64,000 bases of DNA, from the NCBI GenBank assembly GCA_001792345.1, contig MGGJ01000006.1, positions 22,656-86,655 of the forward strand, in the 5' to 3' direction. The DNA comes from Candidatus Woesebacteria bacterium RIFCSPHIGHO2_01_FULL_39_32. Lineage in GTDB: Bacteria; Patescibacteriota; Microgenomatia; UBA8517. Position numbers and translations under genes: made by a program. Below, piece after piece: positions 41,010 to 50,183 of the stretch. The notes below the pieces were generated by a model. That model was not told the origin of the DNA and searched no databases. It worked only from the letters and a program-made list of their open reading frames with translations. Position 1 is the stretch's first letter. The number at the start of each line of letters is the position of its first letter.

Positions 41010-41585
41010 TTAATAATTATCGGGATTAGAAAGACGCTTGTCTATATTAATAAGTTTTCTAATATATTCTGACATATTAATTCCCTCCTTTTTTGCTGCT
41101 TTTTTAAGATAATCAACTTGATGAGGATATAAAAACATATTAAACCTTTTGGTAAGAGTAAGCTGCCTAACCTTTGCCAGAAAATCCTGAATAATTGGCC
41201 TAATAGTTGTTTTCGTGTATTTTGCACCAAAAAAATAATCATTAAAAATTCTTTTACTCAAATCTTCATTTATAGAAAGAACTAAAACGGGCTTTTTTTC
41301 GCTTATTGCAAACATTGCCTCATGTCCAACTTGGAAATCTTCATTAGATACTTCAACAACAATCGCATCTGCTTGGTGTATCCCTTGTCTAATTGCCTCG
41401 TAATGCAAAAGCTTAGGATTATCTGAAAGTTTCAGACGAACTCTATCGCTTAAAAGATCCTTATAATTGCCAATCTCCGTGCCAATCAACGTAATATCGA
41501 ACCCCTTGAGGGTACTAAGAACCAAATCATAATATTTTTGGTACTTTTTCTTCCCAAAAAATGATGCTGTATAAAAAATTATCAT
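41010..41585 (-). CDS. Nucleoside 2-deoxyribosyltransferase-like domain fused to a ribbon-helix-helix domain (putative regulator)
   Basis: ADAIVVEVS....VGHE..FAI..KKPVLVL; C-terminal KRFNMFL.....YLKKAAKKEGINMSEYIRKLI. Confidence 0.75.
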   Translation of the reverse strand: MIIFYTASFFGKKKYQKYYDLVLSTLKGFDITLIGTEIGNYKDLLSDRVRLKLSDNPKLLHYEAIRQGIHQADAIVVEVSNEDFQVGHEAMFAISEKKPVLVLSINEDLSKRIFNDYFFGAKYTKTTIRPIIQDFLAKVRQLTLTKRFNMFLYPHQVDYLKKAAKKEGINMSEYIRKLINIDKRLSNPDNY

Positions 41586-41590
41586 ACATA

Positions 41591-41720
41591 TCCACGGCTA
41601 AAGCCGTGATTCTCTTACTACATTTGCTTTCGGCAAATGAATTTCATGAGTTCAATCCATCCACGCATAAGCAAAGCTTGGCCACGCTCAGCGTGGTAAA
41701 TACGTGGTCTTCTTGAACCT
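41591..41720. mobile_element. IS200/IS605-derived miniature palindromic element
   Basis: CCACGGCTAAAGCCGTG hairpin, CATTTGC-TTTCG-GCAAATG and nested CCACG...CGTGG hairpins. Confidence 0.5.
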
Positions 41721-41804
41721 AGTGCAAAAATTCCTTACATATATACATATCAAAATCCTTGATTATTAAACCTATAGGTTATATTATAGCACACAAACAT
41801 ACAT

Positions 41805-42659
41805 ATGAAACAAGTACGTCTCGCTGACACAATTAAAGTTATCTCGGCGTTTGCACTATGGAGCATGCTGGCCATATTTTTTAATAAAGTCACTCTTCCT
41901 GTAAGTGTGTACGTTGTGTTTGGTTCCTTGATTGCTCTTACTCTCCTTTATTTGTATTTTTATTTTGTTAACCATAGATTGCCACACTTTAAATACTCGC
42001 CTGCACTGTTGGGAATTTTTACAGTTGCTGCAGTCAAGGGTATTATTTGGTATCGAGCCCTCCAAATCTATCCTGTTGCTCAAGCAATGCTAATACATAA
42101 CCTTGCTCCTGTTGTAGCACTATTATTTGCTCCAATCTTAATCAAAGAGAAACCCCACTTTAACCATTTTATTGCAGTAATCACCGGATTTTTAGGTTTA
42201 AGTTTACTTTTACAATTTAATGGAGATAAAAATGCACTTATAAATTTGGGGGCAATATTTGCTCTTGGTGCTGCATTTGCATCGGGTCTTCAAGATATTT
42301 TTCATCGAAAACTTTCGCCTTCGGTTACTGGTCTAGAACAAGCATTTATTTTTGTTCTCGGACAAGCACTGGGTAGTGTAATTTTTCTACTTCCAAATCT
42401 TCCATCCACAATAACTTGGGTTGACCTATCTCATATAGCCATATTTGGTATCTTTGGAACTGCTATTCCAATTATTCTTCTTGCCAGCGCTTTCAAAAAA
42501 CTCAGGTCTTTTGAAGTTGCAACCTTAGGCTATACGGAACCTGCGCTGGGGGCTCTTTGGGGATCTTTGTTCTTGAAACAACCAATTCTTCCTTCAACGG
42601 CAATCGGAGGCCTACTTATATTCCTTTCCGGTCTTACTGCTATTCGTGAAGATAAATAA
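41805..42659 (+). CDS. EamA/DMT family transporter
   Basis: 10 TM helices; NLAPVVALLFAPILIKEK and GYTEP..G.LWG.LFLKQ repeats. Confidence 0.92.
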   Translation: MKQVRLADTIKVISAFALWSMLAIFFNKVTLPVSVYVVFGSLIALTLLYLYFYFVNHRLPHFKYSPALLGIFTVAAVKGIIWYRALQIYPVAQAMLIHNLAPVVALLFAPILIKEKPHFNHFIAVITGFLGLSLLLQFNGDKNALINLGAIFALGAAFASGLQDIFHRKLSPSVTGLEQAFIFVLGQALGSVIFLLPNLPSTITWVDLSHIAIFGIFGTAIPIILLASAFKKLRSFEVATLGYTEPALGALWGSLFLKQPILPSTAIGGLLIFLSGLTAIREDK

Positions 42660-42727
42660 CTTAAGTCAGCCCCATTTTCTCCTTCACTTCTTTAACAGTT
42701 TCATGACAATTTTCTACTGCACATTTA

Positions 42728-44206
42728 TTACCTACTTAACTTGTTAGTAATCCCAACCACCCGATACACTTCTCTCATTGTTTCTTTTGCAACCTTTCTT
42801 GCTTTTTCAGCTCCTTTTTCTAAAATTTCTTTCGCCAGCTCAATATCATTCTCGAGATCTCTCCTCTTCCTTCTTGCTTCACTGAATTTACGCTTATGAG
42901 CCTCAAAGAGTTTCTCTTTCACCTCAACATCGCCGACTTTTCCTTCTCGATATCTTCTTTTCAAATTTTCCACTTCATCTTTATCATCATTTACAATGTC
43001 ATGATAAATAAATATGGGATTGCCTTCTACGTTCCCCGGGTCGGTAGCATGTTTTCTATTTGGGTCAGTATAGCTTCCCACTATTTGACGCCTGATTACC
43101 TCTTCATCGTCAAAAATATTAATTATATTTCCCAGACTTTTACTCATTTTCCGCTCTCCGTCTGTCCCAACCACTTTACTTGCATTACCCTCCTGAATTA
43201 AAGGTTCTGGAATGGGAAAAGTTTCGCCATGAGCTATATTAAAAAATCTTGCTGTCTCACGGGCAAATTCGACGTGCTGCCTTTGATCCTCACCTACTGG
43301 TACCCCGCTCGGTTTATAAAGTAATATATCTGCAGCCATTAATATCGGATAGTTGAAAAGTCCCATATTTATACTTTCCTTGGAAACACCTTTGGCAAGT
43401 TTATCTTTAAAAGCATGCATTCTATTGGTTAAGCCAAACGGAATATAGTTTGCCAACACAATTGCGAGCATGCTATGTTCAGCTACATCTGACTGACGAA
43501 AGTAAATTCCTTTCTGGGGATCAAGTCCCAAAGCAATGTAGTCAAATACATTACTAATTATGCATCTTTCTAGCTTTTCTCTGTTTTGAATTGTAGTAAG
43601 CGCGTGCAGATCTGCAACGAAATAATATGATTCGACTCCTTTTTCCAACAAATCAAATTGCGGCTTTACTGCTCCTGCATAATTACCCAAGTGGAGAGTA
43701 CTCCCACTTGGAGTAATTCCTGACAAAACTCGTTCTATTGTGTGGTGTTCTTCTTTTGCAGTAAAATCACCAATCTTTGCGCTATTCACCTTCAATAAAT
43801 CTTCTGTTTTCATTTTTAAACCAAACAGCTTATGTCCAGTTCCATCATAGAAATAATCTACGTCCAGTAGTTTTTTATCCAAGTAAAGCGGAATTGAATG
43901 TCCCAGTGGTGGAACCAATCCCGGAGTCAAACCTAAACTTGCCAAATCTTCCTCCGTTGCAAAACTAAGCCTTTTAATTCCTAATGATTCTCTCAATTTT
44001 TTACTATTAACCTTGCTATCGCCTCTTCGGGATACTGCAATAAAACCATTTTCGGTTTTATAAATCATTGTGGCAAGTGCATGTTCCATGGTATCTCCGT
44101 AGAATTTCATATGAGACGGAACGTCCATAGCTAAATCTTCCGGTAAAGGAATAAATTCAAATTCTACATTCGCGTCTATTAATATTTTCTCAATTTTTTC
44201 TTTCAT
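42728..44206 (-). CDS. trpS: Tryptophanyl-tRNA synthetase with N-terminal YbaK/ProXp-like domain (the track start of 44227 is probably too long)
   Basis: SGITPSG.LHLGNY, ADLHALT, YPILMAADIL, VPVGEDQRQH, KMSKS; first ~150 aa carry KLR..LG...LSFAT and GLTPGLVPPLG of the YbaK fold. Confidence 0.95.
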   Translation of the reverse strand: MKEKIEKILIDANVEFEFIPLPEDLAMDVPSHMKFYGDTMEHALATMIYKTENGFIAVSRRGDSKVNSKKLRESLGIKRLSFATEEDLASLGLTPGLVPPLGHSIPLYLDKKLLDVDYFYDGTGHKLFGLKMKTEDLLKVNSAKIGDFTAKEEHHTIERVLSGITPSGSTLHLGNYAGAVKPQFDLLEKGVESYYFVADLHALTTIQNREKLERCIISNVFDYIALGLDPQKGIYFRQSDVAEHSMLAIVLANYIPFGLTNRMHAFKDKLAKGVSKESINMGLFNYPILMAADILLYKPSGVPVGEDQRQHVEFARETARFFNIAHGETFPIPEPLIQEGNASKVVGTDGERKMSKSLGNIINIFDDEEVIRRQIVGSYTDPNRKHATDPGNVEGNPIFIYHDIVNDDKDEVENLKRRYREGKVGDVEVKEKLFEAHKRKFSEARRKRRDLENDIELAKEILEKGAEKARKVAKETMREVYRVVGITNKLSR

Positions 44207-44214
44207 AATTATTA

Positions 44215-45318
44215 TTATACAGACCACTGTTTTACATGTTTGGTACCTTTTAGAAAATAAAAGGGGGCATCCTCGATGTCATCCTTAACATAGACGGCAG
44301 TGTACTGATCCGACTTCGAAAGTATATAGCCCAAAAATTCAATATCTGTTTTATCCGAACCCAAAACAGGAACTCCGTGGTGCGGATACAATCTAGTCCT
44401 ACGATGGATTGGATGGAATGAATAGATCCCCTGCCTTGAAATTGTTGACACGTATATAGATTCAGGAAAAGTACTTTTAACCATATTTAGATTTTTCTTA
44501 ACACTCTGAATTGCAAGGTATTTTATTGTTACTTCCAAGGCTTCATTAGATAAATACTGAAGAGTACTCAGCTGAAAACCAGTGAGGTCATTTAAGGTTC
44601 TGTTACCAAATCCAAAGACAACAAGAAGATCCTTGATCGGGATTTCCTCCATAATTGCCAAGCTTCTCATCATAACCGGAGAAAGCGACTCGATCATCTC
44701 CGATATTTCCTTAGAACTTCTGCTCGAACGCAGTTTATTTTCTTCCATGCGAATAAGTTCCCTAAAACCCGATTGGTCCGGCACTATATCCATAAAATCC
44801 ACAAAGTTAATTACGCCATTTAACTCCAACTTTTGACAAAATAAATCGCATTTTTCATCAAATACCATTACTTCTTCGGAGCTTGCACCGAACAGGTCTT
44901 GATAAGTCTTACCTTCAGTCAGAACTGTAAATTTAACACCAGGAGAATAAACCTGTTTGATAGTTGCATCAATATCACCAAGCCTAAGTAAAAACGAAAG
45001 TTCTCCTAAATCGGGAGTCCTCCGCAAAGTCTCAACAGGGTTATGGCATTTGAAAGGAAATGCCTGAAAAACAAATTCTATAGGCTTATTTCCGTTAACA
45101 AACCTAAGAATATCTAATTCCAATTCGGAAGTTACGGAATAATCAACCAAATTCCCTCTGCGAATTTTATTATCTGCAAGCATTCTGACAATTTCAGGAG
45201 TTATCTCATCACTAGGAATCGTTCTTACTAGAGGACGTGGATCCCTGACCAGGTGATCTATTCCGTCAACATATTCTTTATCAATATCGTTTCCCTCTAT
45301 AATTTCGTTAAAATTCAT
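44215..45318 (-). CDS. L-Tyr/L-Trp isocyanide (isonitrile) synthase family protein (PvcA/IsnA/Dit1)
   Basis: AFPFKCHNP, PDLGE..FL.RL, I..VYSPGVKFTVLTEG..YQDLFG and PHHGVPV follow the family motif order. Confidence 0.82.
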   Translation of the reverse strand: MNFNEIIEGNDIDKEYVDGIDHLVRDPRPLVRTIPSDEITPEIVRMLADNKIRRGNLVDYSVTSELELDILRFVNGNKPIEFVFQAFPFKCHNPVETLRRTPDLGELSFLLRLGDIDATIKQVYSPGVKFTVLTEGKTYQDLFGASSEEVMVFDEKCDLFCQKLELNGVINFVDFMDIVPDQSGFRELIRMEENKLRSSRSSKEISEMIESLSPVMMRSLAIMEEIPIKDLLVVFGFGNRTLNDLTGFQLSTLQYLSNEALEVTIKYLAIQSVKKNLNMVKSTFPESIYVSTISRQGIYSFHPIHRRTRLYPHHGVPVLGSDKTDIEFLGYILSKSDQYTAVYVKDDIEDAPFYFLKGTKHVKQWSV

Positions 45319-45391
45319 ACCAAACTAACCCCTGTCCGTTTTCAGGACTAGGGGCTCCTTTCCCTATAAATTGTTCATTATCTATTGCCAT
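45308..45391 (-). CDS. Putative 27-aa leader uORF MAIDNEQFIGKGAPSPENGQGLVWYEF
   Basis: ATG at 45391 to TAA at 45308; overlaps the synthase ATG and spans the CCCCTAGTCC/GGACAGGGG hairpin. Confidence 0.4.
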   Translation of the reverse strand: MAIDNEQFIGKGAPSPENGQGLVWYEF

Positions 45392-45536
45392 ATTGTTGTG
45401 TATTGATACACCCTCCTTACTGCAAAGCAGCAAGCTCTGCTTATCTCCGCACTCGGCTTTTCAATTCTATTTGAATACGCCTCGTGCCGATATTTATCGG
45501 AGGGTTGTGTACCATTTTTATAAATCAAAGGTACAC

Positions 45537-45582
45537 AAAAAAACCCTTGCAAAACCACCAAAAATTGATGATCTTACAAGGG
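45537..45582 (-). terminator. T-box terminator
   Basis: 17-bp stem CCCTTGTAAGATCATCA/TGGTGGTTTTGCAAGGG (with G-U pairs) plus T7; overlaps the 3' arm of the antiterminator. Confidence 0.85.
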
Positions 45583-45885
45583 CCTTCTTAGTATTCAAGT
45601 ACTGTATTTACTTACTACCTACTACTAACTACTTACTACTAATTTCGGCTGTGCCACCCTGTTTTACCGGCTCATTAAAAAATCCCCTCGCGGGGATGAA
45701 TATTTCTAATGAGTAAGTCTCATTCTTGACATTCTCCGCGTGTTTACACTGAGTGTAATCGAACGTGCGACAAATGTTGCAGACTTATTACGGTTTCGCC
45801 TCCGTGCTCGACATCCCTTTGACTTGGCTCAGGGTAGCCTTGCCAGCTATTCAAGGATCCCAATCAATCCTCTCAAAGCGTTTAT
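45537..45885 (-). promoter_or_regulatory. T-box riboswitch, Trp specifier, ultrashort stem I
   Basis: Stem I at 45846-45879 with GA motifs and TGG in the loop; CCGTAA stem IIA/B-like motif; stem III CTCATTA/TAATGAG; T-box CAGGG-TGGCACA-GCC pairing with GGC-CCTTG; competing terminator. Confidence 0.82.
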
Positions 45886-45893
45886 TGAAAAGT

Positions 45894-45922
45894 ATATTAA
45901 CAAAGATAAATTTAAAATGCAA
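45894..45922 (-). promoter_or_regulatory. Promoter of the T-box leader
   Basis: TTGCAT-17 bp-TAATAT with an extended -10 TG. Confidence 0.55.
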
Positions 45923-50083: not shown

Positions 50084-50111
50084 AGTTTTATTCTGACAAT
50101 TTAAAATTATG

Positions 50112-50183
50112 TGCACCCGCTTGGATTCGAACCAAGGACCCACGACTTATAAGATCGTTGCTCTACCGCTGAGCTACGGGTGC
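50112..50183 (-). tRNA. tRNA-Ile (anticodon TAT)
   Basis: GCACCCG acceptor, ACGAT-CTTATAA-GTCGT anticodon arm, GGTTCGAATCC. Confidence 0.9.

Follow-up and report, generated by a model that had tools for sequence, protein, structure and literature searches.

A stretch of 64,000 nt from contig MGGJ01000006.1 of Candidatus Woesebacteria bacterium RIFCSPHIGHO2_01_FULL_39_32 (the window, to whose coordinates all locus positions below refer) carries on its minus strand an operon in which a gene of the PvcA/IsnA/Dit1 isonitrile synthase fold precedes trpS. Our analysis indicates that two sensors of tryptophan starvation placed in series, a transcriptional T-box and a +1 frameshift at a UGG codon, probably switch this enzyme on when Trp-tRNA is scarce. 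The genome holding the window (G000) is 1.17 Mb and 95% complete. An original prediction for this locus had listed a promoter, a Trp T-box, an upstream open reading frame (uORF), a PvcA-family gene, an 8-nt gap and a gene for a YbaK-fused tryptophanyl-tRNA synthetase (TrpRS), with EamA transporter and NDT/RHH-like genes nearby, and every part is found at its predicted place. The uORF had been seen, while the frameshift signal at its end had been overlooked.

The uORF (45308..45391, minus strand) has 27 codons with a lone Trp codon at position 24, and by our prediction the enzyme truly begins with the 23 aa encoded here. Its end forms a compact cassette (45316..45361, minus strand), consisting of a Shine-Dalgarno (SD)-like AAAGGAG (45361-45355), a hairpin (45354-45329) with a second SD-like sequence, AGGGG, as its 3' arm next to the E-site codon, a slippery GUU-U (45325-45322), the Trp codon UGG (45322-45320) and an ATG in the +1 frame at 45318. 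The enzyme gene (44215..45318, minus strand) encodes 367 aa when read from this ATG and a predicted 391 aa as a +1 fusion with the uORF.

To place this arrangement in context we fetched 20 loci related by the synthase-like gene, several of which are duplicates, and used a family panel of 125 genomes (genomes and loci are labelled G### and L###, respectively). After L011 was dropped as a false match and L019, L022 and L024-L028 were excluded because the upstream region or the 5' part of the gene is missing, 14 loci of the PvcA clade had enough upstream DNA for the cassette to be read; 12 of them are distinct, duplicates L015 and L017 being counted once. In all 14 the uORF ends as hairpin-GGG(G/U)-NNN-GTT-TGG-Y-ATG, and the enzyme is encoded in the +1 frame. 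Further copies were found through a pattern search, a covariance model and inspection. The pattern search gave 34 matches in 31 of the 125 genomes; 20 loci and three further regions were inspected, and 10 similar-string matches lay outside this inspection. The covariance model matched 12 of the 125 genomes, four of them training members. CTT/TTT-TGG-ATG matches inside ndk-like and uvrB-like coding sequence were dismissed as chance, and two other candidates were left out, one from G456 that is degenerate, has its uORF out of frame and lacks a T-box, and one from G407 in which the +1 frame is closed. The resulting set comprises 22 intact copies, 12 from the distinct PvcA-clade loci (window included) and 10 with other cargo.

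Across these 22 copies the A-site codon is always TGG, in frame with an ATG 20-34 codons upstream, and GGG(G/U) always ends 3 nt before the P-site codon. The latter is GTT in 20 copies and CTT in two, and never GTA, GTC or GTG; GTT makes up 46% of the Val codons in G000. The base after TGG is a pyrimidine in all copies except one (21/22). Indels between the uORF ATG and UGG preserve the frame (+2/-11, -6, +12), each uORF has one Trp codon, the terminator lies upstream of the uORF, and nearly all of the cassettes have trpS downstream. The upstream AAAGGAG is conserved among cassettes and the 16S anti-SD sequence of G000 is intact. SD sequences are not enriched at starts in this genome (GGAG in 23 versus 20 of 721), and the G-rich surroundings of the cargo ATG are atypical.

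The closest known parallel is the frameshift site of prfB, whose motif is given as AGGGGG-3nt-CUUU-UGA-C in PMC12421855. Measured against that description, the cassette shares an SD-like AGGGG ending 3 nt before an XUU-U, a slow A-site codon, a following base that is mostly a pyrimidine, and a short 0-frame ORF joined to the +1 frame. It differs in that its A-site codon is the sense codon UGG in 22 of 22 copies, so that the sensor would be Trp-tRNA instead of RF2, in that its cargo is not RF2, and in that its P codon is mostly GUU where prfB has CUU. In addition, its SD-like arm doubles as one side of an mRNA hairpin, and it sits behind a T-box and heads exchangeable cargo. The prfB gene of G000 is itself uninterrupted. 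Judged by these sequence features, the cassette appears to work like prfB but is not prfB, and a trans-frame product is predicted. Placing UGG into the RF2 site reportedly made shifting in E. coli depend on Trp-tRNA. In a 70S system, +1 shifting on a sense codon under starvation was stimulated by a hairpin lying upstream at the E site (PMC6321510).

The cargo genes and their relatives provide a second line of evidence. The 10 further intact cassettes all lie upstream of trpS, and the cargo kinds comprise the PvcA clade, a family of 260-340 aa, a family of 440-470 aa, a GNAT-like gene and a small zinc-ribbon protein, with partners that include histidine phosphatases, AstE/AspA deacylases and NIF3. 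Two cargo copies lack any nearby start codon, and their homology or open frame sets in at the shift. In these two (G413 and G427) a +1-frame stop falls right before the shift codon and no ATG, GTG or TTG follows for 28 and 7 codons, respectively. The G413 and G441 cargo proteins align from the first shifted residue (42% over 243 aa), and this region is present in most full-length homologues. When a hidden Markov model (HMM) of 21 uORF peptides was compared with 266 stored proteins, it found the N-termini of in-frame cargo homologues (P0219, E 3.7e-6; P0223, 0.0025; P0216, 0.011), and P0225 and P0253 resemble the predicted frameshift junction. Five other database proteins start with the cassette read in the +1 frame and have non-Met residues after it.

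The first sensor lies upstream, behind putative sigma70-like promoter hexamers (-35 at 45922-45917 and -10 at 45899-45894, 17-nt spacer). The T-box leader (45537..45885, minus strand) has a Stem I hairpin at 45872-45853 with the specifier UGG (45862-45860) in its loop, a T-box motif at 45661-45647 and an antiterminator/terminator at 45587-45537; the motif lies in an antiterminator that competes with the intrinsic terminator. Stem I is only about 20 nt long, and the long Stem I with its elbow-binding motif is absent from the window leader. Searches with Rfam gave no T-box match in the window, even at E<=10, and nothing reached the RF00230 gathering threshold, while three of nine related loci matched RF00230 weakly (35-38 bits against a threshold of 93). 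An alignment of 11 leaders nevertheless reveals a Stem I of 5 bp in which all five pairs have two-sided changes, a covariation score that 0 of 500 shuffles reached, together with an invariant UGG-purine in the Stem I loop, two more covarying helices, the T-box motif and the terminator. Among the cassette loci the T-box motif is present in 21 of 22, the remaining one being cut off, and UGG plus a purine occupies the Stem I loop in 20 of 22. As a same-genome control, we noted by eye sister T-boxes in G000 that display CGC ahead of an operon with argS as its last gene, AAC ahead of an archaeal-type aspS and, in a long Stem I, UAC ahead of an operon with tyrS as its last gene. Taken together, the covariation of Stem I, the T-box motif, the weakly matching relatives and the sister T-boxes support the proposed Trp control: by these sequence criteria the leader is a Trp T-box whose specifier matches the amino acid of the operon, and tRNA binding is predicted. 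It shares the T-box motif, antiterminator and matching specifier with both the long-Stem I transcriptional T-boxes and the translational T-boxes of actinobacterial ileS, whose Stem I is ultrashort. Transcriptional T-boxes generally need a long Stem I according to a review (PMC7583486); the window leader departs from this by pairing an ultrashort Stem I with an intrinsic terminator.

Several further observations concern these leaders. The three sister T-boxes of G000 (C12:76263-76487, C9:10961-11107 and C13:20193-20483, with apparent Arg, Asn and Tyr specifiers) fall under the Rfam cut-off, and two of them head operons of unusual enzymes that end in a synthetase. Among 29 trpS loci taken as controls, a T-box stands straight before trpS in two, three carry the cassette module, and 24 have none in the available DNA (<600 nt in four). 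Very small T-boxes directly precede trpS at L065 (G339) and L060 (G230), and in the former almost nothing separates Stem I from the antiterminator. L026-L028 have lost all but the 3' third of the PvcA-clade gene, which stands straight after a partial T-box; this is likely an internal deletion. Between the terminator and the uORF of the window lies a structured spacer (45392..45536, minus strand) shared with L023 and G413 and partly with G427; it is kept in four loci (window, L023, L171 and L071), with no covariation seen. At the place of this spacer, five loci (L008, L018, G329, G442 and G477) have a tRNA-Trp gene, and G447 carries a second tRNA-Trp copy.

The enzyme itself belongs to a tight clade of 48 proteins (40-57% identity) within a wider family of 106 representatives at E<=1e-30; its close homologues carry the names Woesebacteria or Microgenomates, and the clade is rare, being present in four of the 125 family genomes. 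The HMM search proposed for this gene gave a match to DIT1_PvcA (PF05141; E 6.8e-24), and the accompanying structure comparison, in which the AlphaFold model (pLDDT 82.9) has PvcA and PIsnA as its best matches (Foldseek E 5e-10, Z 17.8 for 3e59), confirms a PvcA fold at the level of this predicted model. The next fold matches are TyrRS and cyclodipeptide synthases (Z 7-9; cyclodipeptide synthases 7.0-7.7), which share the TyrRS-like Rossmann fold but match far more weakly than PvcA. Although Pfam match, fold and several aligned motifs are shared with PvcA, IsnA, PIsnA and Dit1, identity to known isonitrile synthases is only ~17-19%, and the match to the NCBIfam PvcA equivalog NF045653 is 40.3 bits against a cut-off of 600. 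Of the PvcA motifs, the Lys, Asn, Pro-Asp, Glu and His-Gly are kept, whereas Ser has become Cys, Asp Glu, His Thr and Trp His; a Cys (C91) after the first Rossmann strand is invariant. The window enzyme also differs in its starvation-type control beside trpS and in its missing oxygenase partner. The original prediction was right on this last point: no Fe/2OG oxygenase or other tailoring partner occurs in the related loci, and the TauD family (PF02668) was not found in G000, in a search whose control was positive in only one of 14 genomes. G000 encodes RpiB, and trpB was not found in it.

Downstream, the YbaK-fused TrpRS (42728..44206, minus strand; tRNA_edit E 2.2e-18 plus tRNA-synt_1b) follows the enzyme gene after the 8-nt gap. 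The original prediction called for a survey of co-occurrence. In it, the linkage of the synthase-like gene to trpS proves conserved, with trpS directly following in 18 of the 20 related loci (in L014 the next ORF is 95 aa and L020 ends early), but that to a YbaK fusion and EamA does not. Some loci have a plain TrpRS downstream and others one fused to YbaK or B3/4, and these enzymes belong to several deep, well-supported trpS clades; YbaK is a minority form, present at two of 20 clade loci by tblastn, and was rejected as a defining partner. The EamA transporter (41805..42659, plus strand) and the NDT-like/RHH protein (41010..41585, minus strand; both Pfam matches below cut-off) are incidental neighbours, found in none of 30 related loci, 16 of which reach the downstream tRNA-binding gene. 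A second trpS was not found in G000, where TIGR00233 has one match and the other two PF00579 matches are TyrRS-like by inspection; the YbaK-TrpRS, as the sole TrpRS found, is therefore the housekeeping enzyme. Nor is the fusion special, since several synthetases of this lineage carry an editing-type domain: in G000 a YbaK-like one on AspRS (C9:9097-10920) and a B3/4-like one on LysRS (C1:26348-28654), both by inspection, and B3/4 on the TrpRS of L009 by Pfam. A -10-like TATAAT 7 nt before the trpS ATG (44207..44219, minus strand) is likely a separate, leaderless trpS promoter; by eye, trpS usually keeps such a box ~7 nt before its ATG, also in relatives without the module, which fits a genome with no SD enrichment at starts. 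With a promoter of its own before trpS, the module would mainly serve the cargo gene.

In the mechanism we propose, uncharged tRNA-Trp would bind the mini Stem I and the antiterminator and so bring about read-through of the terminator. On the extended transcript, a ribosome would read UGG when Trp is plentiful and stop four codons on, releasing a 27-aa peptide. With UGG hungry, the peptidyl-tRNA-Val would re-pair from GUU to UUU, and translation would continue through Gly-Met into the 391-aa fusion. The push for slippage could come from a duplex abutting the E site, either SD:anti-SD and/or the refolding hairpin, and the kept ATG may permit some additional re-initiation. The B. subtilis at operon (rtpA-ycbK) likewise combines a Trp T-box with a Trp leader peptide, in which tandem Trp codons govern how far a ribosome-binding site is exposed. 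That operon senses Trp-tRNA in tandem, at the level of transcription and then of translation, as the mechanism proposed for the window would, the difference here being a single Trp codon that overlaps the cargo start in a slippage context. The uORF also falls outside the trpL/rtpLP type of leader-peptide attenuator, as it has no tandem Trp codons governing a downstream terminator or ribosome-binding-site hairpin.

A number of observations weigh against the frameshift. The codon one base past UGG is ATG in 14 copies, GTG in two, TTG in two and GCG, GTA, GTC or GAA in one each, such that a start-like codon, needless for a pure frameshift, is present in 18 of 22 copies and is ATG in 12 of 12 of the PvcA clade. 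Re-pairing from GUU to UUU involves a first-position mismatch and is weaker than that from CUU to UUU. The hairpin core (CCCC/GGGG) has almost no covariation over 20 copies, with four of nine pairs in a 12-copy set. Only two start-less copies are clean, because G441 and G444 have a +1-frame ATG 6-8 codons upstream in the hairpin, and even G427 has a TTG 7 codons into the +1 frame. No in-frame fused member of the window's own PvcA clade was found among the 266 stored proteins, the profile of the second cargo family compares only weakly with that of the PvcA-like family (probability 2.7%), and the cassette copies are related, so that the counts overstate their independence. The start-like codons, the weak re-pairing, the scant hairpin covariation and the small number of clean start-less copies are the reasons why we rate the frameshift as probable and no higher. 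The same start-like codons, with the conserved AAAGGAG and intact anti-SD, would suit a starvation-on alternative in which a ribosome stalled at UGG drops its peptidyl-tRNA, or RF2 misreads UGG, and the SD-tethered ribosome restarts at the NUG one base on; RF2 is known to act on UGG as a near-cognate codon. This alternative is distinctly unlikely, given four copies with no start codon there, and it leaves both the invariant XUU-U and the uORF-like N-termini of in-frame homologues without explanation. The module could conversely be a starvation-off gate, in which a consumer of Trp or Trp-tRNA starts at its own AUG, by coupling or from a site split by the SD and hairpin, a ribosome stalled at UGG blocks that AUG, and the T-box raises trpS and tRNA-Trp. 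Such a gate would resolve the paradox of a Trp consumer, and it draws on the invariant ATG of the PvcA clade, the extra tRNA-Trp genes in five loci and the uORF stop four codons past Trp in nine of 12 distinct clade loci. Coupling would favour a stop at a fixed position, however, and the stop varies between copies, lying at a distance of 5 to 15 codons in many. Some cargo is start-less, trpS is preceded by a -10 box of its own and in most relatives by no T-box, and in G419 and G452 the Trp T-box directly precedes a cargo homologue that is in frame and ungated by a uORF, all of which make the starvation-off gate very unlikely.

What the enzyme does is the weakest step of our explanation. The original prediction called it paradoxical that Trp starvation should turn on a Trp-consuming enzyme; this paradox is real, and the second sensor sharpens it. 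Of its three options, the first, in which a minimal pathway makes a Trp isonitrile, EamA exports it and an editing TrpRS protects the cell itself, has in its favour the PvcA fold (Z 17.8), RpiB for the supply of ribulose-5-phosphate and the adjoining EamA gene in this genome. We consider it highly improbable, as EamA and the NDT/RHH gene recur at none of the 30 loci, YbaK recurs at two of 20, the TrpRS is variable in type and the only one found in the genome, the equivalog score is some 40 bits against 600 and no TauD-family partner was found. The other two options, action on Trp-tRNA and salvage, are the leading ideas on the reaction. We tentatively favour amino-group chemistry that helps to restore the Trp supply, for instance by freeing Trp whose amino group is blocked by a sugar or in some other way; amine-ketose-phosphate chemistry and the kinase, phosphatase and deacylase neighbours make salvage of N-substituted Trp our first guess. 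Chemistry on Trp-tRNA or tRNA-Trp, in the manner of cyclodipeptide synthases and compatible with the frameshift, follows closely, likewise at low confidence. Cyclodipeptide synthases, which have the same TyrRS-like fold, use aminoacyl-tRNA. Pointing in this direction are TyrRS and cyclodipeptide synthases as the best folds after PvcA, the invariant C91, the extra tRNA-Trp genes inside the operon, with a second copy in G447 and others beside in-frame homologues with a second trpS, and the extra tRNA-Lys that a G000 paralogue follows. But tRNA genes are insertion hot spots, which makes such adjacency weak evidence; spending Trp-tRNA in starvation would be costly, and the characterised isonitrile synthases take free amino acids (PMC11350588, PMC7949033). 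Canonical isonitrile synthesis by the enzyme is unlikely, and capping of competing Trp analogues still more doubtful.

The wider family offers further instances of this type of control. In G419 and G452, the UGG T-box heads the in-frame cargo homologue, a phosphatase and tRNA-Trp, divergent from a second trpS; together with G437, these islands (L178, L179 and L180, respectively) are divergent from membrane-protein genes as well as the second trpS, and in G437 the Stem I loop has UGA where the others have UGG. The PvcA-family paralogue of G000 lies behind a Lys-Lys leader-peptide attenuator of the starvation-on type and an extra tRNA-Lys, and precedes an M20 hydrolase. At this locus (C1:20031-22436, L007) the extra tRNA-Lys(UUU) is divergent, and a second Lys-Lys attenuator (C1:25208-25320) stands before a radical-SAM-like gene and a class I lysS. 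Folding of both leaders fits starvation-on logic, and both use AAG codons, yet ARAGORN lists no tRNA-Lys(CUU) in G000. From the T-box, frameshift and Lys-attenuator contexts it appears that the PvcA-like fold has repeatedly been wired to shortage of charged tRNA. Distant homologues in CPR bacteria adjoin ROK kinases and HAD phosphatases or directly follow tRNA genes, which may be insertion sites. One such distant family (L088, L089, L091, L092, L093, L109, L111 and L112; ~320-350 aa, mostly with no Pfam match and a weak PvcA-like profile match) often starts, across diverse CPR genomes, no more than ~10 nt from where a tRNA gene ends (3' end). The second cargo family has no Pfam or PDB sequence match, two unnamed cargo families resemble DIT1_PvcA clusters in the ESM Atlas by features and structure, with low recognition or below the bar for naming, and single-sequence structure prediction of the 470-aa cargo reached a pLDDT of 32.

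Some additional features were noted in passing. In G000, RF1 beside rpmE (C13:84720-85470, L039) seems to lack its N-terminal domain (~250 aa), and the residues flanking GGQ are variant in both release factors. Towards its 3' end, the 16S rRNA gene (C8:3143-6310) is interrupted by three or more intron-like inserts with ORFs resembling endonucleases, and it keeps a canonical anti-SD. The window also encodes a tRNA-Ile with a UAU anticodon (50111-50183, minus strand), which is present in related loci as well. L009 (CAZBTH010000011.1), titled Gammaproteobacteria, is a Woesebacteria-type locus, and its contig has probably been mislabelled or mis-binned.

Frameshifting at hungry codons has a long history of study, either as an error or as a tool for the laboratory. 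A 2016 review of recoding states that no hungry-codon frameshifts making starvation-specific trans-frame proteins were known (PMC5009743). Our literature search, which covered subscription journals only in small part, returned nothing on this element, on CPR T-boxes or on this PvcA clade. If the proposed reading is true, the cassette would be a natural amino-acid-sensing frameshift that yields starvation-specific trans-frame proteins, in a form compact enough to be a candidate for testing in E. coli or a reconstituted system. It would also mean that several CPR genes are annotated with wrong starts. The leaders further show that there are terminator-type T-boxes with a 20-nt Stem I, which escape standard annotation. 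Put together, and with confidence somewhat short of even, we suggest a portable switch, in which a hungry-Trp +1 frameshift behind a minimal T-box turns on divergent enzymes of the PvcA/TyrRS fold for Trp recovery or Trp-tRNA work during starvation of auxotrophic CPR bacteria. This would tie a so far unexplained branch of PvcA/Dit1 to amino-acid starvation in host-dependent bacteria, and points to a new reaction for the fold.

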